A program made the translations under genes and the position numbers. A stretch of DNA of 64,000 nt from NCBI GenBank assembly GCA_038882955.1, contig JAVZNC010000002.1, forward strand, positions 192,001 to 256,000, in the 5' to 3' direction. Shown piece by piece: positions 24,526 through 58,833 of the stretch. The notes below the pieces were generated by a model. That model saw nothing but the letters and a program-made list of their open reading frames with translations. It did no database searches and had not been told where the DNA came from. The first letter of the stretch is position 1, and each line of letters opens with the position of its first letter. The DNA is from Candidatus Bathyarchaeia archaeon. GTDB taxonomy: Archaea > Thermoproteota > Bathyarchaeia > Bathyarchaeales > Bathycorpusculaceae.

Positions 24526-26574
24526 CTATGTTTTCTTTAGATAGCCTTCCCTAGGCTCATATATCGTTCCTTCACGCAGCAACTGCCCTATGAGGCGTTC
24601 CGCTTCCGCCCTCGGAATCTTGTATTTATTTTCCAATTCGTCTATTAGCGCTTCCCTTTCAACGATTCCCGTCTCCTTCTCCATCTCCATAAGCTTCGAA
24701 ATTATCACTTGCAGTTTGTCCCTCGCGCTTTTTGGTTTTCCAGTCATTATTATGTCTATGTCAAGCTTGAATGAAGAGACATCGATGCCAACCTCTTCAA
24801 GTGAACGCTTCATTATCGCAATTGCAGCCTCAGCGTCCTCAGCTAAAACCTCTTTTCTTAATGCTGCTCGGGCTCTAGCCTCTGCTACGCGCACAAGCGA
24901 TTCAAGTTGGCGGGCTGTAATTGCGACTGGCGAGCTTTCTGACTCGGTTATTGAACGCATTGCCAAATAGAAATCTCTGAGTCGCTCTAACGCCTCTTGG
25001 GTTAAAACCGGCTTTATTCCCCTCGCGTAACTTATGTATTTGCGCAGCAAATCTGATGGTATTGGGGGTTCTGCAGGGCTTGAGCCTTTCCTGTGCATTT
25101 CTAGGATGTGCTCTGACATTTTGCCGTCCATTTCCTTGTTCGGCACATCCCTTAAAATGAAAATTAAATCGAATCTCGAGAGTATTGTGACTGGCAAGGA
25201 AATGTTTTCAGCAACTGTGCGGTGCGGCACGTACCTTCCTAGTGTCGGGTTTGCAGCTGCCAGAATGGCCGTTCTAGCGTTTAATGTTGCCACGATGCCG
25301 CCTTTTGCAACTGAAACCGTGTGCTGTTCCATTGCCTCGTGGATTGCAACTCTATCCTCTGGGCGCATCTTATCCATCTCATCGATACACGCAATTCCCT
25401 TGTCAGCCAAAACCAAAGCGCCAGCCTCAAGGCTCATTCCTCCGCCTTTTTCGCGTATTACTGCTGCTGTTAAGCCAGCTGCTGTTGTGCCGCGTCCAGA
25501 CGTGTATAACCCTCGGGGTGCAACCCTTGCCACGTACTGTAAGAGCTGCGATTTCGCTGTTCCCGGGTCGCCTATCAGAAGGGCGTTTATCTCCCCCCTT
25601 ATTGTTATGTCTGGGAGATTTTTTGGGACTCCGCCAAAAAGAAGGTACATTATCGCCTCTTTTATGTGGTCATAACCATAAATTGACGGTGCAATCGAAT
25701 TTATTATCTTCCTATGTATCCACGGGTCCTTTGCCAACTCTAGGATTTTTTCCTCTTCTTCTGGTGATGGAAGCGCTGTTTCAGGCTCTTTACCCAAAAC
25801 TTCTATAGAATTTGCATCCAAGTGAAGTCTGAAAGTGCGAAGTTTTCCAACTCTTGGAAGTGATGGAGCTACAACCCGAACCATGCCAACTATTGAAACG
25901 TGGTCGCCTGGTCTTGCGACATCAACTATTTCTGCTCCGACAAGCTTAATTTGTAAGGTTCTTGGGAGCTGACCTGGTGGGAGGTCTTCTGGTCTTTCTT
26001 GGACGCGCAGTTCCTGTGAATCTATGAATGCAGATTCTTCTTGAATGAAGTCGAATGGTCCTTTTGCTCCGCATTCTGGGTTTCTGCATTTAAATGGTGC
26101 TTTTAGGAATTGTCCTGTTTGGTCTTCGAATGAGAGTTCTCCGCATCTTCTGCATTTGAATGCTGCCCGTAGAACCATTGGGCGCACTGGCGTCGAGCGT
26201 ACCACGATACCTTCTATCATTACCAGTTTTCCAATGTGGTCTGAACCGAGTTTTCTTAGCGGCGTTGCCTCTAGCAGCCTAACGATTCTGGCGGTTAATG
26301 TTTCCCGTTTGCTGGTGAGCCTTTCGGCGTATTCTGGGTCTTCGCTTTCAAGCTGTGCATAGGCTGCATTATTGGCGTATTGTAGGTACTCGTCTGGTTT
26401 TTCAAGGAGTTTTTCTGCAAGTTTGTTGTCAAAGATTAGGATGTCTTCAAAATCAACTATTAATGATGTTTTGCCCGCAACAGCCAACTGTGCAATTTTT
26501 TGTCTGTACTTCTCTGTTTTGAAAAATTCTTGGAACTGTTCTTGGGGGTTTACAACCTCTAATTCTCCACTCAT
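24526..26574 (-). CDS. mcm: MCM replicative helicase
   Basis: GDPGTAKSQ Walker A, CIDEMDK, ILSRFDL, TARQLESL; C4 zinc finger; start taken at MSGELE; no intein. Confidence 0.97.
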   Translation of the reverse strand: MSGELEVVNPQEQFQEFFKTEKYRQKIAQLAVAGKTSLIVDFEDILIFDNKLAEKLLEKPDEYLQYANNAAYAQLESEDPEYAERLTSKRETLTARIVRLLEATPLRKLGSDHIGKLVMIEGIVVRSTPVRPMVLRAAFKCRRCGELSFEDQTGQFLKAPFKCRNPECGAKGPFDFIQEESAFIDSQELRVQERPEDLPPGQLPRTLQIKLVGAEIVDVARPGDHVSIVGMVRVVAPSLPRVGKLRTFRLHLDANSIEVLGKEPETALPSPEEEEKILELAKDPWIHRKIINSIAPSIYGYDHIKEAIMYLLFGGVPKNLPDITIRGEINALLIGDPGTAKSQLLQYVARVAPRGLYTSGRGTTAAGLTAAVIREKGGGMSLEAGALVLADKGIACIDEMDKMRPEDRVAIHEAMEQHTVSVAKGGIVATLNARTAILAAANPTLGRYVPHRTVAENISLPVTILSRFDLIFILRDVPNKEMDGKMSEHILEMHRKGSSPAEPPIPSDLLRKYISYARGIKPVLTQEALERLRDFYLAMRSITESESSPVAITARQLESLVRVAEARARAALRKEVLAEDAEAAIAIMKRSLEEVGIDVSSFKLDIDIIMTGKPKSARDKLQVIISKLMEMEKETGIVEREALIDELENKYKIPRAEAERLIGQLLREGTIYEPREGYLKKT

Positions 26575-27146
26575 TCTCCTCGCTCCTCTTCGTGCTCCAA
26601 TATTTGAGCTTTCCATCTGTGGATAAGTTTGCGTAAACGTTCGTAAATTAGCCTTTCCTCACGCGTGAGGTTTTTCAAAATCTGTTCGGTTTGTCCAAAA
26701 TTTGCAGTTGCCAGCGAAACAATCTTTTTTAGGCGCGCGTTAATCATGTCACGTATCACTTGCCTACTTTTTTCGTATTCCCTCATCTTTTCTGGAGACT
26801 TTGCCGAAGCCTTCTTTAGCTCCGCCAAATACCTTCGCAATTTTGGATAAAAGTTCTCTGGAAGCTTTGATATCTGGCTTGGCGTTTGGACGCGTTCCAT
26901 CCACTGAATCTTATAAATCTTTTTCGCATCCAAAAGTTCTTCTTCACGAAAGCGGACAATTCCAGCCCTTTCAAGTTCTTGTGCAATCCAGAACGGTACT
27001 TCGTACACATTTCCTTCTTCGAAAGGTCCAACATTCAGCCCCACAAGCTTAATTTCGGGGCAGTTCCTGTTTGCAATAACGCTTACTGGCAAATTTTCAA
27101 ATTCGAAGTCTAAAGTTTTGATGTTTGGCAAAGTCTTTTCCTGCAT
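26571..27146 (-). CDS. gins23: GINS subunit Gins23
   Basis: EVPFWIA..L B-domain followed by KLPENFY and ARLKKI, LTREE; directly upstream of mcm. Confidence 0.88.
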   Translation of the reverse strand: MQEKTLPNIKTLDFEFENLPVSVIANRNCPEIKLVGLNVGPFEEGNVYEVPFWIAQELERAGIVRFREEELLDAKKIYKIQWMERVQTPSQISKLPENFYPKLRRYLAELKKASAKSPEKMREYEKSRQVIRDMINARLKKIVSLATANFGQTEQILKNLTREERLIYERLRKLIHRWKAQILEHEEERGE

Positions 27147-27280
27147 TTCCTCTTTCCCTTTATTTAGGACTATTTTCGCGTAGAAGATATAAGGACAGTA
27201 GTTTAAAAATTTAGATTGCGAAATTAAAAACACGAAGGTTGTATGAGAAAATTGAATCTAGTCGATTCTGCGGTTTTCTG

Positions 27281-28540
27281 TTAAGGCCATAGCCCCAATG
27301 TTTTTATTGCTTCGCTTACTCTTCCGATGCCAAGCATCAAAGCTGCTGTGCGCATGCTCTCTTTCTCCTTCTCCATCAAGTTGTAAACGTCATTAAACGC
27401 CTTCACCATAATGTTCTCGAGTTTTCTGTTCACTTCTTCAAGTGTCCAATGTTCCCTTGTCAGGTTTTGAACCCACTCGAAATAGCTTGCGGTTACACCG
27501 CCAGCATTTGCCAATATGTCTGGAACTAGGAAAACTCTTTTTTCCCGAAGTATTTTATCTGCCTCTGGAGTTGTCGGTCCGTTTGCACCTTCAACTATTA
27601 TTTTTGCTCTTATCCTGTTTGCGTTGGCTTTTGTTATCTGGTTTTCAAGCGCCGCTGGTATTAGGATGTCACATTTTGTCTCAAGCAATTCTTCGTTTGA
27701 TATATTCTTGCATTTTGGATAATTGATTACCGAGCCAGTTTTCATTTTATGTTCGTAAACTTTGCGTGGGTTTAACCCGTCTGGGCAATAAATTCCTCCA
27801 GCGGAATCGCTAACTGCCACGATTTTGCATCCCATGTCATGTGCGATTTTAGCTGCGTTCCATCCGACGTTTCCGTAGCCTTGCACTGCAGCTGTTGCGC
27901 CCTTAAACTTTAAGCCTAAACGTTTTGCTGCTTCTCTTGCGCAGATTACAACTCCTCTTGAGGTAGCTTCTTCTCTACCCTCAGAGCCTCCTACGCTTAT
28001 TGGTTTGCCAGTGACGCATTCTGGTACGCTGTAACCTTTGTATTGGCTGTATGTGTCCATTATCCATGCCATTGTTTGCGCGTCTGTGTACACGTCTGGT
28101 GCTGGCACATCACGGTATGGTCCAATATAGTCAAGAATTAGACTTGTGTATCTTCTTGTGAGCCTTTCCAGTTCAGTTTTTGACATTTCTTTCGGGTTGC
28201 AGCATACTCCGCCTTTTGCCCCTCCGTATGGAATGTCTACGACTGCGCATTTCCAAGTCATCCACATGGCGAGTGCTGTTACTTCTTCGAGTGTTACATT
28301 TGGGTGATAGCGTATGCCGCCTTTGAATGGTCCACGTGCATCCCAGTGTTGAACACGGCATCCATTGAATGTGCGTATGCTTCCGTCATCCATCCTTATT
28401 GTAATGGAAACAATTAACGACCTTTTAGGATGCTTCAGCATCTCATGGGTTCCAGGGTCTAAATTTAGTTTTTCAGCGGCTATTTCTAACTGTTCCAAAG
28501 CCACATCTAATGCTGTTTGTTGCTCTTTCATATTCTCCAC
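27281..28540 (-). CDS. gdhA: Glutamate dehydrogenase (canonical length)
   Basis: GPFKGGIRYHP, MTWKCA, GGAKGG, DVPAPDV, QGYGNVG, EGANGP, NAGGV. Confidence 0.96.
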   Translation of the reverse strand: MENMKEQQTALDVALEQLEIAAEKLNLDPGTHEMLKHPKRSLIVSITIRMDDGSIRTFNGCRVQHWDARGPFKGGIRYHPNVTLEEVTALAMWMTWKCAVVDIPYGGAKGGVCCNPKEMSKTELERLTRRYTSLILDYIGPYRDVPAPDVYTDAQTMAWIMDTYSQYKGYSVPECVTGKPISVGGSEGREEATSRGVVICAREAAKRLGLKFKGATAAVQGYGNVGWNAAKIAHDMGCKIVAVSDSAGGIYCPDGLNPRKVYEHKMKTGSVINYPKCKNISNEELLETKCDILIPAALENQITKANANRIRAKIIVEGANGPTTPEADKILREKRVFLVPDILANAGGVTASYFEWVQNLTREHWTLEEVNRKLENIMVKAFNDVYNLMEKEKESMRTAALMLGIGRVSEAIKTLGLWP

Positions 28541-28613
28541 TCCTTACTATGTTTCTTCGCTAGTGGTTTTAAAACTTGTTCTGCGTGAAACTTAAAAAAG
28601 AAGAGGAGGTTGG

Positions 28614-30230
28614 TTAGTCTAATATTCTTTCGATGGCATCTGCTTCAATCTCGTGCGGTAATGGTATGCCTGTCACTTTTGCGGCGATTTCTGATAGGCT
28701 CATCAGATCGTTTCTGTTTATTAGTTCCAGTTTCCATTTTCTGTTTCCAGCCAAGAGCTGCTTTAAGCCGACGCCTATGCGGTCTGTCAAGTAAGTGTAA
28801 AGTGCAACTGCTTCCCATGGAATTTCTTTGAAGCGTTCGCCATGCTTTTCCTTGAGTTCCGGCGCTGCGATGAAGAATTTGTCTGGAGTGTTTCCGAATC
28901 TGTCCGCGAAGGCTTTTGGCAGTTTGCCCTCTTCAGCCAATTGTTTGAAGTAGTTTGCCTTCATTACAGCGGTTAATGGTGAGCGTCCCATCAGAACCGC
29001 CTTCACGAACGGTCCGTCTCCGAAGTTGCTCATGGCGATTGCCTTGAAAATTTGTGTTTCGTTTATGAAGCCCCCAGCCATAATCAAGTCTGGAACGTAT
29101 CTGCCCTTCTTTTTCAGTAATTGTGCGCACTTCAGAACTATTGCTTCTAAGTAAACGGTTGGTATGCTCATCTCGTCCATCATTGGAACGGGGCTCATTC
29201 CAGTTCCGCCGCCAGCACCGTCAAAGTATACCGCGTCAATCTTTGCTTCGGAGGCTATTTTTAGGGTGTATGCCACTGCTGTTGGTCTGTATGCGCCAGT
29301 TTTTAGTGTCACGTGCTTTGCGCCTTGCTTGCGCAGCCATTCTATGTCTTCAATCATGTTCTTTTCTTTCGGTATTCCAACGCGGCTGTGTCTCTCGAAG
29401 GATTTGAAGACTCCTTCTTTGAATGCTTGCTGCACTGTAGGGTCTTCTGGGTCTGGGATAACTATATATCCTCTTTTCTTTAGCATTATCGCCTTTTGCA
29501 AGTCTCTTACGCGAACCTCGCCTCCAATCGCCTTTGCTCCTTGTCCCCACTTTCTCTCTATTACGTTGACTTCCAGTTTTGAGATGGCGTAGACGTCAAC
29601 TCCCAAGCGTTGGTCTTCAACGTTTGTTTGGACGGCTATGTCTCCGTATTTTTCATCCCAGAACTTCCTGAACAAGTCTACTCTGCGTTTTAATTCTTTC
29701 GAATAGGTGACCTTGCCATTTGTGAATTGCGCTTCTGGGTCCATGCCGCAGACGTTTTCTCCGACGATTATTATGGCGCCTGACAATGCTGTGCCTATGG
29801 CTAATCCTTCCCAGTTTAGTCTTGCAACGTCTGTTGAGCCGAAGGCGCCGCATAAAACTGGTATTTTTAGTGGTATGCCTGCAACGACCGTTTCTGTGCT
29901 TGCGTTTGGAAACAGCGCAACATCGGAGTTTTCCTCTATTCCTAAAGCTTCAAAAAGTCCAGCTTGTATGTTGAAGTGTGACCAATCCAGTCCAAAGTCT
30001 TTGAGGGCGCCTGCTGTGCTGTATCCGAATTGTACTGGTTCTGGGTATAGTGCTTCTCTTCCTCTGAAAGCTGAAAGTCCAATTTCGCACATTATTGGGC
30101 AGTCGCGGATGCATATCGGGCACATTCCGCTTGTTGGGCTTGTGTCTTTGACTCGTGTGGTTGTTCCTGTTGTCGATTTTCCGTTCAAATAAGAACTGTT
30201 TCTAAACACGCGTTCGGTCATCTTCTTCAC
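28614..30230 (-). CDS. Stand-alone FMN-binding glutamate synthase-family protein with N-terminal Cys cluster
   Basis: K.GQGAK..GGE, LKTG, DGAGGGTGMSP, AGG, MGR motifs of the GltB FMN barrel; CPICIRDCPIMC N-terminus; no amidotransferase domain. Confidence 0.85.
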   Translation of the reverse strand: MKKMTERVFRNSSYLNGKSTTGTTTRVKDTSPTSGMCPICIRDCPIMCEIGLSAFRGREALYPEPVQFGYSTAGALKDFGLDWSHFNIQAGLFEALGIEENSDVALFPNASTETVVAGIPLKIPVLCGAFGSTDVARLNWEGLAIGTALSGAIIIVGENVCGMDPEAQFTNGKVTYSKELKRRVDLFRKFWDEKYGDIAVQTNVEDQRLGVDVYAISKLEVNVIERKWGQGAKAIGGEVRVRDLQKAIMLKKRGYIVIPDPEDPTVQQAFKEGVFKSFERHSRVGIPKEKNMIEDIEWLRKQGAKHVTLKTGAYRPTAVAYTLKIASEAKIDAVYFDGAGGGTGMSPVPMMDEMSIPTVYLEAIVLKCAQLLKKKGRYVPDLIMAGGFINETQIFKAIAMSNFGDGPFVKAVLMGRSPLTAVMKANYFKQLAEEGKLPKAFADRFGNTPDKFFIAAPELKEKHGERFKEIPWEAVALYTYLTDRIGVGLKQLLAGNRKWKLELINRNDLMSLSEIAAKVTGIPLPHEIEADAIERILD

Positions 30231-30308
30231 CCTTTTACGTTTGTAAATTTCGGTATGAAGGGGTTAATTTTAGTCAACATTTAAACATTACCCTAGAAAC
30301 AGCGAAAA

Positions 30309-30326
30309 ATGAACATGAATGTACAT
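30309..30326. promoter_or_regulatory. Two ATGWACAT boxes 10 bp apart upstream of the GltB-like gene promoter
   Basis: ATGAACAT 30309-30316 and ATGTACAT 30319-30326; minus-strand TATA-like TTTAAA at 30280-30285. Confidence 0.65.
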
Positions 30327-30350
30327 GAAGCGTGCAATTTTACCTCGCCA

Positions 30351-31076
30351 TTAAAGAACATCTATTTGTAAGCCCTTAACTGTGTACTCTCGCCGCTGAT
30401 ATGTTTGCGGATTATACCTTCCACCAGCCTTCTTTATCTGCAAAAAGTTTTTGTCACCCTGCCTTGAAAGGTCAATAACAACTTGTGTCATATGCTCAAT
30501 TATTGCACAAAACTCTTTTGGATGCGCGTTCTTCGCCATCGTCCAACAAGCAAGAGTTTGATAAGCATACAATGCGGGGCAAACATGCCCAAAAAACGTC
30601 TTGACCGCGTCTCTTCCCCAATTATGCTCCATAATTGACAAACTGTTAAAAACAAGCCTTGTACCTGGAGTTACAAATTCTCTTTCAATTCTCCCGAAAA
30701 AGTGGTGAAAACGCTCTGGATCTTTGGAGCTTGGAACTTTTCTAATCCACGTTGGTGCCTTGTCATAAAAATCACTGAATATGAGTTCGCCTTGTCCAGC
30801 TGCTTCTGAAAAACAGTCTAATACTAGCAGTTTCTTTTCCCATCCGTCTGGCAATGACTTGGTTAACGGTTCAAGTTGGAGTATCAGCGCTTGTGGAGGA
30901 TATATGAAATCTAGGTAAATTACCTGCTTTCCTTCTAATAGTCCTTGACGCATAAATGAATATAAAAATTCTCTCGCGAAGGTTCCAGATTCAACCTCCC
31001 ACAAAACATTCTCTCCTAGGAATAAACCGCCTTCAAGGAGCTTGTCTAGGCTTTTTATTCCAGTTGAATGAGGCAT
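30351..31076 (-). CDS. KaiC/RecA-superfamily ATPase-fold protein with degenerate Walker A
   Basis: STGIKSLDKLLEGG, VIYL, LVLDCFS, RLVFNSLS, QVVIDL, LQIKKAGG; P-loop position reads EVESGTFA; start taken at MPHST. Confidence 0.8.
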   Translation of the reverse strand: MPHSTGIKSLDKLLEGGLFLGENVLWEVESGTFAREFLYSFMRQGLLEGKQVIYLDFIYPPQALILQLEPLTKSLPDGWEKKLLVLDCFSEAAGQGELIFSDFYDKAPTWIRKVPSSKDPERFHHFFGRIEREFVTPGTRLVFNSLSIMEHNWGRDAVKTFFGHVCPALYAYQTLACWTMAKNAHPKEFCAIIEHMTQVVIDLSRQGDKNFLQIKKAGGRYNPQTYQRREYTVKGLQIDVL

Positions 31077-31167
31077 TTGTTTTTCGCTTGTCAATGTTGT
31101 GCACCGTGTGTAAGAGTTTGCGGGCACCATTAAAAATGTTATGTTGTAATTTGGTTGTTTTATTGTG

Positions 31168-31215
31168 TTGTACAAGTGTGTACATAATGGACATAATATT
31201 TCTATAGTTGAACAT
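31168..31215. promoter_or_regulatory. Four TGNACA boxes in the divergent kaiC-like/gdh2 promoter
   Basis: TTGTACAA 31168, GTGTACAT 31178, ATGGACAT 31187, TTGAACAT 31208. Confidence 0.6.
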
Positions 31216-31239
31216 TGCTTTTGTTAGTCTTCGGAAGGT

Positions 31240-33027
31240 GTGAAAAAGATGTTGAACTCGGTAGAACTTTCAGCTCGTGAATTAGGAATGCTCAAGTTAA
31301 TGGTGGACTTCTTCGCCGAAAAACCAGAGTTAACAGCAAAAATAGAAAGTTACACAACAGCCCACTATGCCTTACTGACAACGTACTCTGAAAACTTTGG
31401 CATACCCATAGAAGATTCTCTAAAGGCTTTTGAAGAGCTAAGGAAGAAGTTGATGGATGCCGAGTACGTCCATGTGAAAGCGCCAGAACCCATAAAGAAA
31501 CTTTTGCCCTTAACACGCGATGAACTTAATATGCTGCGCGTTCTCGCTGACTATTTCTCCGAGAGTCCAAAAATGGCTCCTGCTGGGGCTTTCCTCTCTA
31601 GGAAAGAAGACGCTTTAGTTGAGACGTATTTATGGTTTTACGGAAACAGTGAAGGCAACGGCGAAGTAGCGAGGGAAACTCTCAAAAACCTAGTTGAGAA
31701 ACTCCAAACGGCAGTTTTCGTCAAAGTGGATACATTGGCTCCTATTGCGGTTGCGCCAAACCCTTACGAAGCCGCCCTTAAACAGCTAGACGTGGCTGTC
31801 GAAAAACTGAATCTTGACCCGGGCATACACGAAATATTAAAGCGTCCAATGCGTACCCTCATCGTTAACATTCCAGTAGTCATGGACGACGGCAGCATTC
31901 AAGTTTTCACCGGATACCGCGTGCAATACAATGACGCTTTGGGTCCAACAAAGGGCGGCATAAGATACCATCCAGACCTAACCCTGGACGAAGTCACAGC
32001 CCTAGCCGCTTGGATGACGTGGAAAACAGCCGTAACAGGTTTGCCTCTTGGCGGAGGCAAAGGTGGAATCAGATGCAATCCTAAGGAGATGTCAAGGGCA
32101 GAGCTTGAGCGCCTCACAAGAGGATATGTACGTGCCATAGCAAAGTTCATAGGACCCTTCACGGACGTGCCTGCCCCAGATGTGTACACAACTGCGGAAA
32201 TGATGGCTTGGATAATGGACGAATACAGTGAAATAGTCGGTTATCCAGTTTTCGGCGTGGTGACTGGAAAACCTGTTCATGTTGGCGGTTCTCATGGAAG
32301 AAGCGAGGCTACATCAAGGGGACTCATGTACACAGTTGTCGAGGCAGCCAAACATCTCGGAATAAATCTCAAGGGTGCAACAGTTGCAGTGCAAGGATAT
32401 GGAAACGTAGGCTATCATGCGGCACGCCTGCTACATGAAATCGGATGCAAAATAATCGCGGTTTCAGACTCTAAAGGTGGCGTTTATAACCCAGAAGGTT
32501 TGGACCCGGAAAAAGTTCTTGTTCACAAGGAGAAAACTGGTTCGGTGGTTGAATACCCTGGCAGCACTTTCATAACAAATGAGCAATTGTTAGAACTAGA
32601 ATGCGACATCTTGGTTCCAGCGGCGTTGGAAAACCAAATAACAAAGGAAAACGCTGCAAACATAAAAGCGAAAATCGTTGCAGAAGGGGCTAACGGACCT
32701 ACAACTCCAGAGGCGGATGAAATTCTGTTCAAAAAAGGCGTTTTCGTAATCCCCGACATTCTCGCCAACTCCGGCGGAGTGATTGTCAGCTACTTTGAAC
32801 AAGTGCAAAATCAAATGAACTATTACTGGACTGAAGAAGAGGTTAGGAATAAACTGAAGGAAACAATAACCAAAGCTTTCCACGATGTGCTCAAAATGTC
32901 AAAACAGTACAATGTGAACATGCGCACAGCAGCCTACATGTTGGCCGTAAAAAGAGTGGCAGACGCGCTTGTAGCCAGAAAGGGCACAACGTTCAGCCCC
33001 ATCGTACCACCATTAACACCAAGTTAA
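31240..33027 (+). CDS. gdh: Glutamate dehydrogenase with ~170-aa N-terminal tandem-repeat extension
   Basis: From NPYEAALKQL onward an intact GDH (GPTKGGIRYHP, MTWKTA, GGGKGG, DVPAPDV, QGYGNVG); the N-terminus holds two ~75-aa repeats. Confidence 0.93.
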   Translation: MKKMLNSVELSARELGMLKLMVDFFAEKPELTAKIESYTTAHYALLTTYSENFGIPIEDSLKAFEELRKKLMDAEYVHVKAPEPIKKLLPLTRDELNMLRVLADYFSESPKMAPAGAFLSRKEDALVETYLWFYGNSEGNGEVARETLKNLVEKLQTAVFVKVDTLAPIAVAPNPYEAALKQLDVAVEKLNLDPGIHEILKRPMRTLIVNIPVVMDDGSIQVFTGYRVQYNDALGPTKGGIRYHPDLTLDEVTALAAWMTWKTAVTGLPLGGGKGGIRCNPKEMSRAELERLTRGYVRAIAKFIGPFTDVPAPDVYTTAEMMAWIMDEYSEIVGYPVFGVVTGKPVHVGGSHGRSEATSRGLMYTVVEAAKHLGINLKGATVAVQGYGNVGYHAARLLHEIGCKIIAVSDSKGGVYNPEGLDPEKVLVHKEKTGSVVEYPGSTFITNEQLLELECDILVPAALENQITKENAANIKAKIVAEGANGPTTPEADEILFKKGVFVIPDILANSGGVIVSYFEQVQNQMNYYWTEEEVRNKLKETITKAFHDVLKMSKQYNVNMRTAAYMLAVKRVADALVARKGTTFSPIVPPLTPS

Positions 33028-33052
33028 CATCCCCCCTCCCCCCTTTTCTCTT

Positions 33053-33090
33053 ATGTACATTCAAGAATTTTTTATGAACATGTTTAAAAG
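33053..33090 (+). promoter_or_regulatory. Two ATGWACAT boxes abutting the TATA box of the regulator gene
   Basis: ATGTACAT 33053-33060, ATGAACAT 33074-33081, TTTAAAAG 33083-33090, ATG at 33123. Confidence 0.65.
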
Positions 33091-33122
33091 CAACCGATTC
33101 AAAAAATAACCCGTGAAACAGC

Positions 33123-35081
33123 ATGTCCGTACACCTTCACACAACAATAACCAAAAAGACAAACGAGGTACTTGAAGAACTAGCAAAAACCTATGGCACA
33201 AAAAGCCGCGTTCTCGAAAAAGCCGTAGAAACTCTGCTTAGGGTTGACAAAGTTGGTTCTTGCGATGATTGCACAATAAAAGCAAAAATTAACGAACAAA
33301 CCAAACTGAGAGAGGCGCTTGACCTAACATCGGTTAGCAGAAAAAGCCTTGACAGCCTCCTTGAAGTTGCCCTTGGAAACAGAACAGTTGAAGACTTGAT
33401 AAGGGAACAAAAAGCAGAGGCAAAGAACATAATCGAGATACTAAAAAGCTCTGTTGCATGGAGGGCTCCATCGACCTTCAAGGAGTTTCTACTGGTCCTA
33501 GAAGAGATAAAAGGGCTTACAAACCTCTTTGACATTCCATCATACAGCGAAATCGACAGTGTAGCCGTGCTAAGACCCAGAGTCTTTAAACGCTTACCCG
33601 TAATGGTTGCCTTCCAAATTGCCACAATATTAGAGGGCATAGGCGTAAATTTCGACTTGCGAATTATGGGTGAAGACATAGCCATAAAAATGATTCGCCC
33701 CGAAATTTACCCATTAAGGAGAAAGGAATTCGGCGAATTCTTGGAGCAACAGATTGAAAAAGAACTAGCAAATGTAACTCCAGGCTTGTTCAAAAACACA
33801 CTTATGCTTGTTGGACCAGCCTTCATGAATTGGGCTGAGAAGCATCTTGAGGAACCAGTAACAGAATTGGGCAACTTCATAGAAGATGCAAGAACCGTTC
33901 TCGGCATCGACGAGTTTCCGAGGGAGCCAAAAGATTTTGTTAAGACTATTCTTTCGGCCTTTGTCAAAATGAACTGGTTTAGGCAAGTTAAAGTTTTAAC
34001 AGAGAAAGAAGAGAACACCTTAGAACTTGTTTTCCAAGCAACGACAGCTCAAACAGCTCGTTTATCCTTAACAGTACTTTCGATAATGCTTGCAACACGC
34101 GGATGGAAGCTACTGCATCACTCAATTGAACATGCAAACGTGAACATGACAATAAAATACGTAGGCGCAGAAGACCAAAGCATCCTAGATCAACTAGCAG
34201 AACTCAACCTTTTCCAAATAATAGGAAAACAATTCCTAGATGTTGTTCCAATCCCCCGCGACCTCTTCAACTCCTTCGCTGCAAAAGTATACGAAAGTGA
34301 CAGACAAAAATTTGAAGAAATATACCGCGCAACAGGAGTCCGCATCTCCAACGCCATCCGCATGCTTGCTCGGGGCGACCCAGAAAAAATTGGTAGACTT
34401 TCCAAAAACTTTATCATCAAAAGCATCAGCGTGACGCAGCCCGACGCTGAAGTAAGGTTTGTTGACGACGAGCACTTCACCATCATTTTTAAGCGGATAG
34501 ACCCCCTTGTAATGAACAGCCAACGCATCTTAATAGAATCCATGTTTAAGGAGCTAGGCTACGAAGTTTCAACAACGACATTCCAGAACCTACTAAGCTT
34601 TAAACTAAAACTTTTGGAAAAGCCAGTTCTAGAACCCTTACCGCGGAAAAAGCTTATGCAAACACTAATCGAAGGAATGTCATGCAACTCCATCGAAGAA
34701 GCTTTCGCCGTTGAAAGAGAACAGTTGGACGCGCTTTTTCCAGAAGACTACCCGTGGACTATCAAAGATGTCGGTGAAAGGCTTATTGACATGTACCGCG
34801 AACTCGGCATAGAAGTTGAAATAGAATATTTTGAAGGCGGCTTCACTCTCAAATACAAAAGTTGCCCCTATTACAAACTGGTCAAAACCAATCAGAAGAC
34901 TTGGCTCTGCGGTCTTCGGAAGAAAACACTAGAATACATTATTTCTAGGGTTAGCCACGGCAAAAAGGGGCGAATGAAAATAATAAAATCTCTGCTCCAG
35001 AATGAGCATCCATGCGAATACGCCATATTCCTAACAGGCTTCCTTGAAAAAGAAGAAAAACCAATTGAGACACAAAGCTAG
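33123..35081 (+). CDS. Putative ribbon-helix-helix transcription regulator with V4R/MetOD-like sensory domain(s)
   Basis: N-terminal HLHTTI strand plus two helices (RHH pattern); CDDC; C-terminal FTLKYKSCPYY...LC...SLLQNEHPCEYAI three-Cys V4R-like signature. Confidence 0.6.
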   Translation: MSVHLHTTITKKTNEVLEELAKTYGTKSRVLEKAVETLLRVDKVGSCDDCTIKAKINEQTKLREALDLTSVSRKSLDSLLEVALGNRTVEDLIREQKAEAKNIIEILKSSVAWRAPSTFKEFLLVLEEIKGLTNLFDIPSYSEIDSVAVLRPRVFKRLPVMVAFQIATILEGIGVNFDLRIMGEDIAIKMIRPEIYPLRRKEFGEFLEQQIEKELANVTPGLFKNTLMLVGPAFMNWAEKHLEEPVTELGNFIEDARTVLGIDEFPREPKDFVKTILSAFVKMNWFRQVKVLTEKEENTLELVFQATTAQTARLSLTVLSIMLATRGWKLLHHSIEHANVNMTIKYVGAEDQSILDQLAELNLFQIIGKQFLDVVPIPRDLFNSFAAKVYESDRQKFEEIYRATGVRISNAIRMLARGDPEKIGRLSKNFIIKSISVTQPDAEVRFVDDEHFTIIFKRIDPLVMNSQRILIESMFKELGYEVSTTTFQNLLSFKLKLLEKPVLEPLPRKKLMQTLIEGMSCNSIEEAFAVEREQLDALFPEDYPWTIKDVGERLIDMYRELGIEVEIEYFEGGFTLKYKSCPYYKLVKTNQKTWLCGLRKKTLEYIISRVSHGKKGRMKIIKSLLQNEHPCEYAIFLTGFLEKEEKPIETQS

Positions 35082-35139: not shown

Positions 35140-36117
35140 TTGTCCTTGAGTTTTGAGATGTGGGCTGAAAAGTACAGACCAAAAACATTGGATGAAATGG
35201 TTGACCAAAAGGAGATAGTTGAGCGATTAAAGAGCTTCGTTAAATCCAAAAATGTGCCACATTGCATTTTCGCTGGACCGCCTGGAACTGGAAAGACCAC
35301 TGCTGCGCTTTGTTTGGCTAGGGACTTGTATGGAGATGCTTACCGAGAGCACATAATGGAGTTGAACGCTAGCGACGAGAGGGGTATAGACGTTGTGAGG
35401 GAAACTGTCAAAACCTTTGCTCGTGTGCGGTCTATTGGCGAAATACCATTTAAACTTATGATTTTAGATGAAGCGGACAACATGACTGCCGATGCTCAGC
35501 AAGCCCTAAGGCGTACAATGGAGCGGTATACTGAAACATGCCGTTTCATTTTATGTGCAAACTACAGCGGAAAAATAATTGAGCCTATACAGTCACGCTG
35601 CGCCCCGTTTCGTTTCACATTTCTGCCAAGGGAAGAACATGACAAATACCTTAAGTGCATAGCGGAAAACGAAGGCATCAAACTTCTGAAGGACGGATTG
35701 GACGCGATTTTTGAGGTTTGCGGCGGCGATTTGCGAAAGGCGATAAACACGCTTCAAGCTGCTGCATCGCTGAACAAGCCAATAGACGCGAAGGTTGTTT
35801 ATTCCATTGCGGGTAGGGCTCACCCAGCAGATGTGCAGAAAATGATAGAAACTGCGATTAACGGCGACTTTCTAGAAGCCAGAAAACAACTGCGCGACAT
35901 GATTCAAAAATATGGTGTGGCTGGAAGCGACATAATTAGGCAAATTCACACCGAAATTTTCAGAGCGGATATTCCAGAGCCTTGGAAAATAAAGTTGGCA
36001 GACATTGTCGGCGATATAGATTATAGGCTTGTTGAGGGCGCAGACGAGGAGGTTCAGCTAAGCGCCTTGTTGGCGAGGCTTGTGGAGGCTGGCTACGAGA
36101 TTAAAAAGACAAGTTAG
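35140..36117 (+). CDS. rfcS: Replication factor C small subunit
   Basis: WAEKYRP, GPPGTGKT, ELNASDERGID, LDEADNMT, IQSRC. Confidence 0.97.
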   Translation: MSLSFEMWAEKYRPKTLDEMVDQKEIVERLKSFVKSKNVPHCIFAGPPGTGKTTAALCLARDLYGDAYREHIMELNASDERGIDVVRETVKTFARVRSIGEIPFKLMILDEADNMTADAQQALRRTMERYTETCRFILCANYSGKIIEPIQSRCAPFRFTFLPREEHDKYLKCIAENEGIKLLKDGLDAIFEVCGGDLRKAINTLQAAASLNKPIDAKVVYSIAGRAHPADVQKMIETAINGDFLEARKQLRDMIQKYGVAGSDIIRQIHTEIFRADIPEPWKIKLADIVGDIDYRLVEGADEEVQLSALLARLVEAGYEIKKTS

Positions 36118-36128
36118 GTGCAAAGTGT

Positions 36129-37388
36129 TTGTACGCTGCTTGGACTGTTAAGCACAAGCCAAAATCCCTAGACGAAATCGTTGGAAACAAAGAGGCTATC
36201 CAAACCTTTATTGAATGGATAAAATCTTGGGAGAAAGGCATACCCAAAAAACGTGCAGCTTTCATTTTTGGTCCTCCAGGCATTGGAAAAACAGTTACCG
36301 TTGAGGCTCTTGCCGCTGATTTTAAGATGGAACTTGTTGAGAAAAACGCAAGCGACTATAGGACTGAAGAGGCGATTAACCGTTTTGCTGGTTTAGCTTC
36401 GCAGTATGGCTCGCTTTTCGGCGGCAAAAGAATCATACTGTTGGATGAGCTTGACGGGCTTACTGGCACAGCTGACAAGGGCGGCGTTAAAGCCATAACA
36501 GACATTGTTAAAATTGCCCAGTGCCCAATAGTTTTGATTGCAAACAACGCTTATGACCCAAGATTTGCCAATCTCCGCAACTACTGCCTACTAATAGAGT
36601 TTAAGAAGCCGCCAACAAGCGAAGTCATGAAACATTTGAAGCGCATATGCATCCGTGAGGGAATACAAGCAGACGATGACGCCTTAAAGTTTATTGCACA
36701 GCGTTCAGAAGGCGATGTCCGCTCGGCAGTTAATGACCTTCAAGCATTAGCCCAAGGCAAGAAGAGACTGACGTATGAGGATGTTTCTTGGCTTGGCTAT
36801 AGGGATAGGCAAGACACCATTTTTAATGTTTTGAGAATGATAATTTATGCGCGTACATGCAACAGCGCAAAACAAGCGTTTGACATGGCTGACGTTGACA
36901 TTGATATGCTTTTTGAGTGGATTTACGAGAACGTTCCAGCGCATTTAACTGAACCGCACGATTTGGCAAGGGCTATGGATGCGCTTTCGATGGCAGACGT
37001 CTATCGGGGCAGAATCCGCTCCACACAAGATTGGAGTTTCACGCGCTACGTTATTGATTACATGACCGCTGGCGTTGCAATGGCTAGGCAAAACACGAAG
37101 ACACGCGGGTTTATACCATTCAAGTTTCCAACGCGCATACAAATGTTGTCTAGGTCCAAGGCTGAACGTGCAATACAACTAAACATTGGACAGAAGATTA
37201 AGCGAAAATGTCACATATCCGCTAATAGAGCTTCAAAGGAGATAATCCCCTACCTTAAGATAATATTCAAGAATAATGTTGAAATGGCTGCCGGACTTGC
37301 AAAATGGCTTGATTTGGACGTGGAAATGATTGAGTATCTGACAGAGGATAAGAAAAAAGCGGATGCCATTGCTAAACTTGTAGGTTAA
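36129..37388 (+). CDS. rfcL: Replication factor C large subunit
   Basis: WTVKHKP, GPPGIGKT, NASDYRT, LLDELDG, GDVRSAVNDLQ, WIYEN. Confidence 0.95.
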   Translation: MYAAWTVKHKPKSLDEIVGNKEAIQTFIEWIKSWEKGIPKKRAAFIFGPPGIGKTVTVEALAADFKMELVEKNASDYRTEEAINRFAGLASQYGSLFGGKRIILLDELDGLTGTADKGGVKAITDIVKIAQCPIVLIANNAYDPRFANLRNYCLLIEFKKPPTSEVMKHLKRICIREGIQADDDALKFIAQRSEGDVRSAVNDLQALAQGKKRLTYEDVSWLGYRDRQDTIFNVLRMIIYARTCNSAKQAFDMADVDIDMLFEWIYENVPAHLTEPHDLARAMDALSMADVYRGRIRSTQDWSFTRYVIDYMTAGVAMARQNTKTRGFIPFKFPTRIQMLSRSKAERAIQLNIGQKIKRKCHISANRASKEIIPYLKIIFKNNVEMAAGLAKWLDLDVEMIEYLTEDKKKADAIAKLVG

Positions 37389-56856: not shown

Positions 56857-58257
56857 TTAAACGTAAAGATACTTCTGCAACTCCCAAGACGTTACATGCT
56901 CTTCGATTCCAGAAGCGTGCTTTTCGTATTCCCTCCACTCTTGCATCTTCAGCTCAAAATATTTCTCAGAGTTTTCCCTGCCTAAAGCACGTACACAAAC
57001 TTCGTCGCTTTTCCATTCTTCTAGCGCCTCTTTGAGTGAAGATGGCAAAACCTTTATGCCCAACTCTTTTCGTCGGGACTCGCTTAAACGGTAGACATTC
57101 ATTTCAACTGGTTCTCCAGGGTCAATCTTTCTCTTAATTCCATCCATTCCAGCCTCCAAAACCACCGCGTAGGTGAGGTAAGGGTTACAAAGCGGGTCTG
57201 GACATCTGAATTCTATTCTTGCCTCGTTTTCTTTTCCTGGAAAATACTCTGGCACTCTTATCAGTGACGAGCGGTTTCTTTTGCTCCATGTGACATAAAC
57301 TGGGGCTTCATAGCCTGGCACAAGCCTCTTGTAACTGTTTACGGTTGGGGCTACTATTGCGCATAAAGCTCTTGCATGTTCAAGTAAGCCGCCTATAAAG
57401 TATCGGCATTTCTGTGAAATGTTCGCGTAGCCTTTACCATCATAGAAAATGTTTGTTCCATTTTTCGCGTCAAAAATGCCAATGTGAATGTGCATACCGC
57501 TTCCAGGCTTTCCAAACCACGGCTTTGGCATGAACGTCGCAGTCCACCCATATTTCTTTTCAGCCACGGCTTTTGCCGCAAGTTTGTAGCGCATTATGTT
57601 ATCAGAAGTTGTCAGCGGGTCTGAATATTTGAATGTAATCTCGTTTTGAGCAGACCCAGCTTCGTGGTGTTGGCGTTCGACGGTTATTCCCATTATGCTT
57701 AGGGTGTTGGATAGTTCCATGCGGTACTGTTCCGTAAAGTCTCTATTTGGGGCTATGTCAAAGTATCTATGTTTATCTATCAAGTTATTTTCAACAGGGC
57801 AAATTTCGTCTTTCTCGTCTTTCTGTACTAGGTAGAACTCTATTTCCGCGGCTGCCGTAGGCTTATAGCCTTCGCTTAAAGCCTTTTCCATTGCCTTCTG
57901 GCATATGTATCGGGAATCGCCTTCAAAACGTTTGCCATCTGGTCTGTAGATGTCGCATATGAAGATTGCAACGCTTTTTTCGTAAAAGTAGTATGGACAA
58001 ACCGTAAATGTTGTTGGGTCGGGCTTCATAATCATGTCGCTTTCTTCTATGCCGACGCCGCCTATTATTGAGGAACCGTCGAAGCCTACTCCTTCTTTTA
58101 GGGCGTTTTCGCCTTCTTCTGCCGGGATTGTTCTGCCCTTAAGATACCCCAAAATATCCGTAAAGTGTAAGAGTACGTAATCAGCGTTCTTCATAAGCCT
58201 AATACATAAATCAAACTTTTTAGCGTGGTTCTCTTCTGCGTATAGCATGGCTTTCAC
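56857..58257 (-). CDS. glnA: Glutamine synthetase type I
   Basis: GFDGSSI, EIEFYL, HHEA..AQNEI, FMPKP, GSGMH, NSYKRLVPGYEAP, NRS.LIRVP, RIEFRCPDP. Confidence 0.93.
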   Translation of the reverse strand: MKAMLYAEENHAKKFDLCIRLMKNADYVLLHFTDILGYLKGRTIPAEEGENALKEGVGFDGSSIIGGVGIEESDMIMKPDPTTFTVCPYYFYEKSVAIFICDIYRPDGKRFEGDSRYICQKAMEKALSEGYKPTAAAEIEFYLVQKDEKDEICPVENNLIDKHRYFDIAPNRDFTEQYRMELSNTLSIMGITVERQHHEAGSAQNEITFKYSDPLTTSDNIMRYKLAAKAVAEKKYGWTATFMPKPWFGKPGSGMHIHIGIFDAKNGTNIFYDGKGYANISQKCRYFIGGLLEHARALCAIVAPTVNSYKRLVPGYEAPVYVTWSKRNRSSLIRVPEYFPGKENEARIEFRCPDPLCNPYLTYAVVLEAGMDGIKRKIDPGEPVEMNVYRLSESRRKELGIKVLPSSLKEALEEWKSDEVCVRALGRENSEKYFELKMQEWREYEKHASGIEEHVTSWELQKYLYV

Positions 58258-58389
58258 CTGCTTATGAACAAATTTTTAATAAAAGGAATACTTTGTATAA
58301 GTATAAAAAGTTTCTTTCTAAAATTAAGCGCAAATGTTAAATAATAAACGTTGTAGACTAAATAGATGTGCATTTTGGATGTGGGGGCT

Positions 58390-58833
58390 ATGGTGCTAGA
58401 CGAAACGGATATTAAAATACTAAAAGTGTTGACTTCCGATGCTAGGCTTTCGTCGAGGCAAATAGCTGACCAATGCGGAGTTTCCGTTGGCACGGTTCTG
58501 TCGCGCATAAAAAGAATGGAAAACGAGGGAATAGTGCAGGGTTATTCAGCCATTCTCGACCATGAAAAGCTAGGATATGAACTAACTGTTGTCAGCGAAA
58601 TAACGGTTTCAAAGGGCAGACTGTTGGAAGTTGAAAATGAGATTGCAAAACTACCAAACGTTTGCTGCGTCTACGACGTGACAGGACTAATAGACGCAAT
58701 AATAATTGCAAAATTCAAAAACCGCCAAGAACTAAGCAAATTCACAAAACGCCTACTCTCGCTGCCATATGTTGAAAGAACAAACACCCACGTAGTGCTA
58801 ACAACAATAAAAGAAGACTTCCGCATAATCTAA
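58390..58833 (+). CDS. Lrp/AsnC family transcriptional regulator
   Basis: LDETDIKIL..L..DAR.S..IA HTH, YDVTG..D, RTNTHVVL; divergent from glnA. Confidence 0.93.
   Translation: MVLDETDIKILKVLTSDARLSSRQIADQCGVSVGTVLSRIKRMENEGIVQGYSAILDHEKLGYELTVVSEITVSKGRLLEVENEIAKLPNVCCVYDVTGLIDAIIIAKFKNRQELSKFTKRLLSLPYVERTNTHVVLTTIKEDFRII

Follow-up and report, generated by a model that had tools for sequence, protein, structure and literature searches.

A three-gene cassette with common promoter boxes as a candidate switch on glutamate metabolism in Bathyarchaeia and Asgard-type archaea

What holds together five genes of a Bathyarchaeia archaeon, two for glutamate dehydrogenases (GDHs) and three for a GltB-like protein, a KaiC-like protein and a protein of 652 amino acids (aa), that lie between replication genes, and what might control them? 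The locus is part of a 64,000-nucleotide stretch of DNA (contig C2, positions 192001-256000), which is called the window here; it belongs to a genome of 1.54 Mb that is 95.6% complete and whose closest named relatives are metagenome-assembled genomes of Bathyarchaeia. The answer proposed below is that three of the five genes form a conserved unit with putative operator boxes in its promoters, and that the 652-aa protein is, with a probability of roughly 60%, a ligand- or redox-sensing ribbon-helix-helix (RHH) regulator that would bind the boxes flanking the TATA elements and autoregulate the cassette. The five genes were placed between the pairs MCM-GINS and RFC-small/RFC-large by open reading frame (ORF) calls and Pfam/NCBIfam matches. 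A first reading of the window from its letters alone (the sequence-only reading) had described these five genes, with clustered boxes in three of the four gaps between them, and this description agreed with the ORFs, the family matches and the mapped box positions. The features are listed by window coordinates:

26571-27233, minus strand: GINS (ORF and Pfam/NCBIfam)
27281-28540, minus strand: GDH1, a plain glutamate dehydrogenase of 419 aa (Pfam and NCBIfam)
28614-30230, minus strand: GltB-like flavin mononucleotide (FMN)/iron-sulfur protein of 538 aa (Pfam Glu_synthase, PF01645)
30309-30326, no strand: putative operator array 1, 5' of the GltB-like gene (ATGAACAT at 30309-30316, ATGTACAT at 30319-30326)
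30351-31076 (30351-31175 from a TTG start), minus strand: pseudo-KaiC (KaiCL), 241 aa from the ATG (Pfam, and profile against KaiC)
31169-31215, no strand: putative operator array 2, in the divergent KaiCL/GDH2 gap (four boxes around the TATA-like TTTCTATAG)
31249-33027 (alternative start 31240), plus strand: GDH2 with an N-terminal tandem-repeat domain (Pfam and NCBIfam)
33053-33090, no strand: putative operator array 3, 5' of the 652-aa gene (two boxes and the TATA-like TTTAAAAG)
33123-35081, plus strand: 652-aa candidate sensor-regulator ('BIG') (ORF; no Pfam family above cut-off)
35140-36117, plus strand: RFC small subunit (ORF and Pfam/NCBIfam)

The conserved unit is a three-gene core composed of the genes for pseudo-KaiC, the extended GDH (GDH2) and the 652-aa protein. 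One scan of species-representative genomes yielded 64 orthologous loci, 53 of them labelled Bathyarchaeia or Bathyarchaeota and 11 of Asgard type (labelled Hermodarchaeota, Promethearchaeota, a Hermod-named isolate or Thorarchaeota). All three genes, with the pseudo-KaiC gene divergent from the others and the order constant, were present in 55 of the 64 loci, and in the remaining nine a contig end cuts into the missing gene or precedes it. The order of the trio is unchanged where the flanks differ, and the flanks of the Asgard loci are unrelated. In a comparison of 61 genomes from the genus, family and order to which the window belongs, the full-length 652-aa gene, the pseudo-KaiC gene and the GDH N-terminal domain were held by the identical 16 genomes; three further relatives hold only fragments of the 652-aa gene. 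What survives of the five-gene system first proposed is this linkage; GDH1, which is free of boxes (0/28), and the GltB-like gene, which is often found in trio-less genomes, do not share it. Most Bathyarchaeia loci have the cassette between MCM-GINS (24526-27233 in the window) and RFC small/large (35140-37388), and in some (L052, L053, L069 and L070) the MCM/GINS and RFC flanks have swapped sides around an intact cassette.

The promoters of the core carry repeated copies of a short palindromic box. In the window, the promoter of the 652-aa gene contains ATGTACAT at 33053-33060 and, adjoining the TATA-like TTTAAAAG at 33083-33090, ATGAACAT at 33074-33081; the divergent gap contains TGTACA at 31169 and 31179, TGGACA at 31188 and TGAACA at 31209; and no boxes were found in the gap between GDH1 and the GltB-like gene. 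The window-wide count of ATGNACAT is unremarkable (13 strand matches versus 7.8 +/- 2.8 in shuffles); its clustering is remarkable, with 5 of 11 distinct sites within 387 nt of gap as against about 0.07 expected. The hexamers TGTACA, TGAACA/TGTTCA and TGGACA/TGTCCA were then counted in the 130 nt 5' of each gene across the 64 loci, for which the background rate is 0.29 per 130 nt. Two or more boxes, in counts that are inflated by kinship among the loci, were present at 63/63 loci for the 652-aa gene, 56/56 for GDH2, 54/54 for pseudo-KaiC (whose gap is common with GDH2) and 34/36 for the GltB-like gene, versus 1/137 for the flanking controls (GDH1 0/28, RFCS 0/37, RFCL 0/36, GINS 0/13 and MCM 1/23). 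Orthologous promoters of other genomes keep the boxes while the neighbouring sequence diverges, and the boxes are still present in the Asgard loci, although protein identity there is 50-66% and the intergenic sequence around the boxes can no longer be aligned by eye. By these counts, the claim that one palindromic box is common to several promoters of the locus was confirmed.

The placement of the boxes relative to the TATA-like elements is also kept. At the regulator promoter the proximal box abuts TTTAAAAG, and its Asgard counterparts have a box on either side of ATTAATAAA. In the GDH2 promoter, TTTCTATAG is preceded by three boxes 9-10 nt apart and followed by a fourth, and this arrangement is retained in Asgard; in the GltB-like promoter a pair of boxes with a spacing of 10 nt lies some 25-45 nt upstream of a TATA-like TTTAAAT on the minus strand. 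The boxes are taken to be a conserved operator, common to the KaiCL/GDH2, 652-aa and GltB-like promoters, for which the binder is a candidate. Elsewhere in the genome, 11 of 12 other clusters of at least two boxes lie inside ORFs of at least 100 aa and were attributed to chance. The sole other box pair in a gap of the genome is at C6:61608-61623, about 35 nt upstream of a 108-aa ORF. A box pair within the 652-aa ORF was considered as an operator and rejected, since it is conserved in 0/55.

The genes of the core do not appear to form one operon. A C-rich and then T-rich tract, CCCCCCTCCCCCCTTTTCTCTT (33028-33052), follows the GDH2 stop codon, and T-runs are found there in orthologues too. This tract probably serves as the terminator of GDH2, in which case the 652-aa gene would be a transcription unit of its own. 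The trio is spread over at least two units, and probably three, each with its own promoter. Two sequencing runs labelled metatranscriptomic, which were flagged as probably DNA, contained relatives only (most pieces less than 95% alike), and their contigs span the intergenic gaps.

The 652-aa protein is read as an RHH-type one-component regulator because no other cassette product has a module that resembles a DNA-binding domain. It reached the cut-off of no model in Pfam or NCBIfam. It has 487 database relatives, of which every named one is called 'hypothetical' and the labelled ones are Bathyarchaeia; in a library clustered at 50%, the full-length form is a single cluster, accompanied by fragments and a few relatives of about 500 aa at 22-27% identity, which lack the last module and still keep most of the invariant N-terminal residues. 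The AF2 model has a mean pLDDT of 71 and a pTM of 0.41, at which the arrangement of domains is unreliable. Its layout comprises an RHH-like part (residues 1-44), an invariant GSCxxC (45-50), a helical linker and alpha/beta modules at about 117-192, 252-347, 357-500 and 513-644; the helix-hairpin-helix-hairpin cores of the four modules lie at about 119-190, 269-346, 420-497 and 547-637 in the model, with long helices preceding them. The N-terminus of the AF2 monomer has a beta-alpha-alpha pattern, in which helices 11-24 and 27-40 follow a strand segment of low confidence; an RHH strand would form only in a dimer. The invariant G45-S46-C47-x-x-C50 lies in a poorly predicted stretch. Residues H4, H6, T7, T8, G25, K27 and R29 are invariant in 56 orthologues, and the mean column identity of the protein is 63%. 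The core of the boxes is invariant as well, which lends indirect support to their being read through a beta-ribbon. A match to RHH_3 over residues 6-40 and an alignment with RHH_1 proteins, both below threshold, count in favour of an RHH module. In two distant relatives a receiver domain is attached to the counterpart of the N-terminal ~190 residues, which indicates that this part belongs to signal transduction.

The last module resembles a sensor domain. The family MetOD1 matched residues 552-635 below threshold (16 bits against a cut-off of 23.8, E=0.013), and among the matches listed PF18546 is annotated on 3 of 120 relatives. Residues C581, C596, H629 and C631 of this module are invariant in 56/56 orthologues, so that three invariant cysteines are present. 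The accessible part of PMC5847659 describes MetOD1, V4R and H-NOX as related, and MetOD1, V4R and ATC hydrolase as linked by three conserved cysteines; C581, C596 and C631 fit that signature. No sequence similarity was detectable among the four modules, and Foldseek with the whole model returned no match at E <= 0.001. In two Atlas clusters of the 652-aa protein, PF27313 ('AF_0136_C') is found on 10-14% of the members.

On this reading of the 652-aa protein, a mechanism can be outlined. The protein would dimerise through its N-terminal RHH-like module, and the beta-strand carrying H4, H6, T7 and T8 would read the 6-8 bp TGTACA/TGAACA boxes, dimers aligning cooperatively on arrays of two to four boxes spaced one or two helical turns apart. 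It would repress its own gene and GDH2: since boxes abut or bracket the TATA element and the B recognition element (BRE) at these two promoters, occupancy should block TBP/TFB. The boxes at the GltB-like promoter are upstream of the TATA element, and the effect there could thus be activation. Sensing may fall to the four alpha/beta modules, of which the third and fourth are Bet3/V4R/H-NOX/MetOD1-like, to invariant cysteines, or to both, the candidates being the CxxC beside the DNA-binding module and the three cysteines and histidine of the last module. What is sensed could be the redox state, a metal or a small ligand; it would alter DNA binding and so set the levels of GDH2, pseudo-KaiC and the regulator, and in Bathyarchaeia also of the GltB-like flavoprotein. 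Box binding by the 652-aa protein, the sign of regulation, the signal and any contacts among pseudo-KaiC, the GDH2 N-terminal domain and the regulator are all things that we infer. Post-translational control by pseudo-KaiC and the GDH2 domain, as suggested by the sequence-only reading, would be a possible further layer. Nitrogen control as the role of the cassette is no better indicated than redox or carbon sensing.

Pseudo-KaiC, the second core product, is a predicted RecA/KaiC-fold protein that has lost its ATPase motifs and gained a new set of invariant histidines and cysteines. KaiCL scored 34.5 bits against Pfam PAXNEB (cut-off 28) and 22.9 bits against Pfam KaiC, below the cut-off of 26.6, and matched SSO2452 at 5e-5; a profile of 26 orthologues matched PDB KaiC chains at E=8e-6, a similarity of KaiC/RadA type. 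The KaiC P-loop G-T-G-K-T aligns to S-G-T-F-A in KaiCL, where Walker A (GxxxxGK[ST]) is absent; among the 26 orthologues T32 is invariant, F33 nearly so, and none has lysine at that place. Likewise, the F-E-E-S-P-Q of KaiC aligns to F-I-Y-P-P-Q, without the catalytic glutamate pair, and in the same orthologues P60, P61 and Q62 do not vary here and Y59 hardly does. The Walker B aspartate, D87, is retained. C88, H124, H164, C166, H185 and H195 are invariant in 26/26, and the mean column identity is 78%. The fixed or nearly fixed replacements in the ATPase motifs, the invariant histidines and cysteines and the 78% identity indicate a protein under strong constraint in a new function and not a decaying ATPase. 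The sequence-only reading had called this a dead KaiC-fold protein, and the absence of the P-loop lysine and threonine and of the catalytic glutamate pair agrees with it. A complex prediction of KaiCL with the GDH2 N-terminal domain scored 0.00 against a mark of 0.32, was run without controls and is informative neither way.

GDH2 consists of an N-terminal tandem-repeat domain (residues 1-165; 31249-31743) and a dehydrogenase core (residues ~166-592), with Pfam matches to ELFV_dehydrog at 5.6e-89 and ELFV_dehydrog_N at 3e-58. Both domains are present in both GDHs (1e-57 to 1e-89), which score 575 (GDH1) and 641 bits (GDH2) against NCBIfam GdhA_Arch, below the equivalog cut-off of 750; the GDH2 core is 63% identical to GDH1, and the lysine motif GG(A/G)KGG is found in both. 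The extension was modelled by AF2 with a pLDDT of 82 and a pTM of 0.80 as two beta-alpha-alpha-alpha-beta repeats, so the repeat domain anticipated for GDH2 does exist, as a two-repeat domain. An Atlas search with it gave no usable match.

The GltB-like protein has a likely start at an ATG at 30221 and an N-terminal CxxCxxxCxxxC motif. It matched PF01645 with 42 bits over profile positions 185-296 of 369 (112 positions); no amidotransferase or GXGXG family match and no NCBIfam match was obtained, so that the domain set of a glutamate synthase (GOGAT) is incomplete, and a PDB sequence search gave nothing useful. At least 6795 matches to the family are named 'glutamate synthase-related protein', and the protein is assigned to this wider uncharacterised family and not to the complete GOGATs. 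Its gene is present in 43 of the 61 relatives, many of them trio-less, and adjoins the trio in 38/64 loci, with 0/11 in Asgard; it is therefore outside the conserved core and appears to join the box regulon only in Bathyarchaeia. Its membership of the system, as originally claimed, holds to the extent that boxes precede it in 34/36 loci beside the trio, and fails for the trio-less relatives and the Asgard loci. A leader, TTTGCAAA(C/T)GTAAAGG, stands just before the GltB-like start codon (30231-30260, minus strand), spanning and exceeding the ribosome-binding site; by a count from printed sequences it is kept both beside the trio and in ~11/20 trio-less genomes.

GDH1 comes next after the GltB-like gene in most Bathyarchaeia loci, and a T-run after the GltB-like stop codon is followed by a TATA-like element of its own. 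It is judged from its promoter to be a neighbour that the boxes do not control; the proposal that GDH1 is controlled by them as part of the locus failed against this box-free promoter (0/28 loci).

The distribution of the cassette bears on its origin. A quick tree of the 652-aa protein, with the ~500-aa relatives as its root, groups all 11 Asgard sequences in a single clade (SH-aLRT 100) nested within Bathyarchaeia. A separate Bathyarchaeia clade was not rejected by the approximately unbiased (AU) test (p=0.31), and for this reason no donor is claimed; a single transfer of the whole cassette between Bathyarchaeia and Asgard, operators included and in either direction, is likely from the tree. 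One of the three relatives with fragments only, the trio-less G021 (C1:177749-177930), has a 22-residue remnant of the 652-aa C-terminus about 80 bp upstream of its GltB-like gene, with the proximal box only, apparently a scar left by deletion of the cassette. A distant relative of the 652-aa protein at 27% identity (L098) was rejected as a further locus: its divergent 218-aa neighbour is not a pseudo-KaiC, there is no GDH, and its promoter has no convincing boxes.

Several observations weigh against the 652-aa protein as the RHH regulator of the boxes. By every sequence test its RHH membership falls below threshold: RHH_3 matched its residues 6-40 with 14.9 bits and E=0.027, below the cut-off of 21.6; the in-register hhalign alignments of the N-terminus to two RHH_1 proteins that this genome encodes have P values of 0.0034 and 0.018, which with probabilities of 9.5% and 2.5% are not significant; and PDB searches by sequence and by profile returned nothing relevant. 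With the VIA tool, residues 357-500 matched Bet3 at Z 9.1 (root-mean-square deviation 3.6, 116 aligned) and the sensor domains of PoxR/MopR/DmpR at Z 8.0-8.4 (127-138 residues), and residues 513-644 matched BcsD at Z 8.1 and H-NOX at Z 7.0 (with residues 520-644, BcsD at Z 8.1 and H-NOX at Z 6.6-7.0), modules 3 and 4 being taken together with the helices before them; all of these are near the background of the tool, for which Z 7-9 is close to the level called common for unrelated models. The three core genes, moreover, always co-occur, and phyletic data therefore cannot tell which product binds the boxes. Finally, two genomes from two genera of another family (G038, locus L109, and G049, locus L111) have tandem TGAACA boxes 10 nt apart 5' of the GltB-like gene and no relative of the 652-aa protein by full-length or N-terminal profile, from which it follows that another factor may read such boxes. 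The designation as an RHH-V4R regulator in the sequence-only reading thus stands in part: the N-terminus is beta-alpha-alpha and the last module resembles MetOD1/V4R, and the family matches (RHH_3 E=0.027, MetOD1 E=0.013) are sub-threshold.

The box pairs of G038 and G049, that sub-threshold assignment and a length that is very large for an RHH regulator would all be accommodated if the boxes were read by a regulator encoded elsewhere, the trio being a metabolic or structural set under common control, with the 652-aa protein as a scaffold, a chaperone or an enzyme partner of GDH2. This is considered unlikely, because promoter clusters of boxes in this genome are confined to the cassette and its neighbour, because boxes and cassette travel together into Asgard genomes, as expected of a binder that the cassette encodes, and because relatives fuse the N-terminal part of the protein to a receiver domain. 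The GltB-like promoters point the same way: among 20 trio-less genomes, paired boxes were found in 2, a single box in 3 and a different promoter in the rest, so that 18/20 lack the pairs that are present in 34/36 beside the trio. If the binder is encoded in the cassette, it could instead be GDH2, acting like PutA as a DNA-binding trigger enzyme whose N-terminal domain is a degenerate winged-helix/helix-turn-helix (HTH) pair on the boxes, with the 652-aa protein and pseudo-KaiC as modulators. Co-occurrence with the boxes is as perfect for this domain as for the other two genes, and the weak structural matches of the domain are mostly to HTH or winged-helix domains, including Rrf2, MarR and RepE by Foldseek (E 0.16-0.6) and LuxR-type, ScpB, Lrp/AsnC and ORC domains by VIA (Z 3.3-4.5). 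Against this, VIA found no structural relative at Z >= 5 among 48,161 chains (best Z 4.5), no Pfam DNA-binding family is found on the domain, and it is acidic (isoelectric point 5.1; 26 D+E versus 20 K+R), so that GDH2 as the binder is highly improbable.

A reading without any regulator in the cassette was also considered, in which GDH2 and two non-catalytic partners form one enzyme complex that tunes activity or redox coupling, the boxes only coordinate stoichiometry and the 652-aa protein does not sense. Strict linkage and high conservation (78% for pseudo-KaiC, 63% for the 652-aa protein) are what such a complex would lead one to expect; the invariant histidine and cysteine sets of both proteins could hold metals or clusters, and the GDH extension is found in no other context (17 near-length matches, many of them truncated copies, all on this GDH). 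It is nevertheless very unlikely, given the separate promoters of at least two and probably three transcription units rather than one operon, and given the N-terminal module and receiver-domain fusions of the 652-aa protein, which point to signalling. A more elaborate form of the regulatory reading, doubtful in our estimate, would make the cassette a new type of mobile three-protein switch. GDH2 would be a trigger enzyme whose novel N-terminal domain reports its catalytic or substrate state, and pseudo-KaiC, through its new histidine/cysteine site, an adaptor or second sensor; both would act on the 652-aa RHH multi-sensor, giving reciprocal control of GDH2 versus the GltB-like reductive enzyme, and the unit and its operators would have moved between Bathyarchaeia and Hermod-type Asgard.

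The 652-aa protein as an autoregulating RHH regulator can be compared with known systems. The MetJ/Arc/CopG/omega-type RHH repressors and NikR have a short N-terminal beta-alpha-alpha module and tandem short boxes about one helical turn apart. The 652-aa protein resembles the RHH repressors in its beta-alpha-alpha N-terminus, its arrays of palindromic or repeated boxes and the boxes in its own promoter, and resembles NikR in that its C-terminal part could take a ligand or metal. It differs from the RHH repressors in its 652 aa, its invariant CxxC, the four alpha/beta modules behind the RHH-like part and the lack of an RHH Pfam model at cut-off, and the boxes of this archaeal protein flank a TATA element, not -35/-10 sites. 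PutA of enteric bacteria is a fusion of RHH to an amino-acid-catabolic dehydrogenase, and binds a number of short operators within a divergent promoter region. Here too, a catabolic dehydrogenase is tied to a candidate RHH function and a divergent promoter has several short sites; unlike in PutA, the RHH-like module is on a separate protein, the 652-aa one, and GDH2 carries a different extra domain.

Among archaeal regulators, MsvR binds DNA through an HTH domain and not through RHH, has one V4R domain and is not known outside methanogens. PMC3729527, in its accessible part, describes this methanogen V4R regulator as redox-sensitive, with conserved cysteines that affect DNA binding, and as binding boxes upstream of its own gene. 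To the extent of that description, the 652-aa protein is similar as an archaeal one-component candidate with a V4R-type module, conserved cysteines and boxes at its own promoter, and MsvR may serve as a precedent for cysteine-dependent, redox-sensitive box binding by an archaeal V4R regulator. The 652-aa protein is unlike MsvR in having four modules, of which only the last is MetOD1/V4R-like by sequence (E=0.013), and in its candidate targets, which are genes of glutamate metabolism. In model fold, modules 357-500 and 513-644 also resemble Bet3, the phenol sensor domains of PoxR/MopR/DmpR and H-NOX, with Z near background.

In Bacillus subtilis, according to the accessible part of PMC6794564, the GDHs RocG and GudB inhibit GltC, the activator of gltAB. 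So far as that account goes, the cassette is alike in tying together a GDH, a transcription-factor candidate and a glutamate-synthase(-like) gene, for which the B. subtilis circuit may be regarded as a precedent. The differences are that GltC is of LysR type and the regulator families are unrelated, that the GltB-like protein is incomplete as a GOGAT, that pseudo-KaiC has no counterpart in B. subtilis and that any GDH-regulator contact in the present system is hypothetical. Inactivated members of the KaiC superfamily, named 'iKaiC', are described in the accessible part of PMC5847659; KaiCL is similar to iKaiC, as represented there, and to Elp4/PAXNEB in having a single RecA/KaiC-like domain with degenerate ATPase motifs. 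It is unlike them in the replacement of the P-loop GKT and the glutamate pair in 26/26 and in its new invariant histidine/cysteine set, and its partnership is fixed with a GDH and a regulator candidate, not with clock or motility proteins.

The metabolic setting was searched at the level of the genome. A family search extended the earlier observation that PII, nrpR and amtB genes are absent from the window: across the whole 95.6%-complete genome, the P-II, Amt and NrpR families gave no match, which makes a different logic for the control of glutamate metabolism plausible. The genome has two glutamine synthetase genes, one of them in the window (56857-58257, minus strand) and divergent from a gene for an Lrp/AsnC-type regulator (58366-58833, plus strand); a single ATGAACA stands beside the start of the glutamine synthetase gene of the window. 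Full-text literature searches found no description of the cassette or of the 652-aa protein, so that, as far as these searches reach, the combination is as unfamiliar as it had appeared to the sequence-only reading.

Next to nothing is known of how Bathyarchaeia and Asgard archaea control transcription, since these organisms are largely uncultivated. The cassette looks like an undescribed gene switch on glutamate metabolism, and is proposed to be an RHH-type autoregulated one-component system to which three undescribed protein modules are attached: the 652-aa regulator family, a GDH N-terminal domain without a structural relative at Z >= 5, and a repurposed KaiC fold. It would be a complete circuit testable in vitro, made up of a defined operator, its target genes and a candidate regulator whose recognition residues are conserved, and its targets sit at the glutamate node, which joins carbon, nitrogen and redox metabolism in anaerobic protein degraders.

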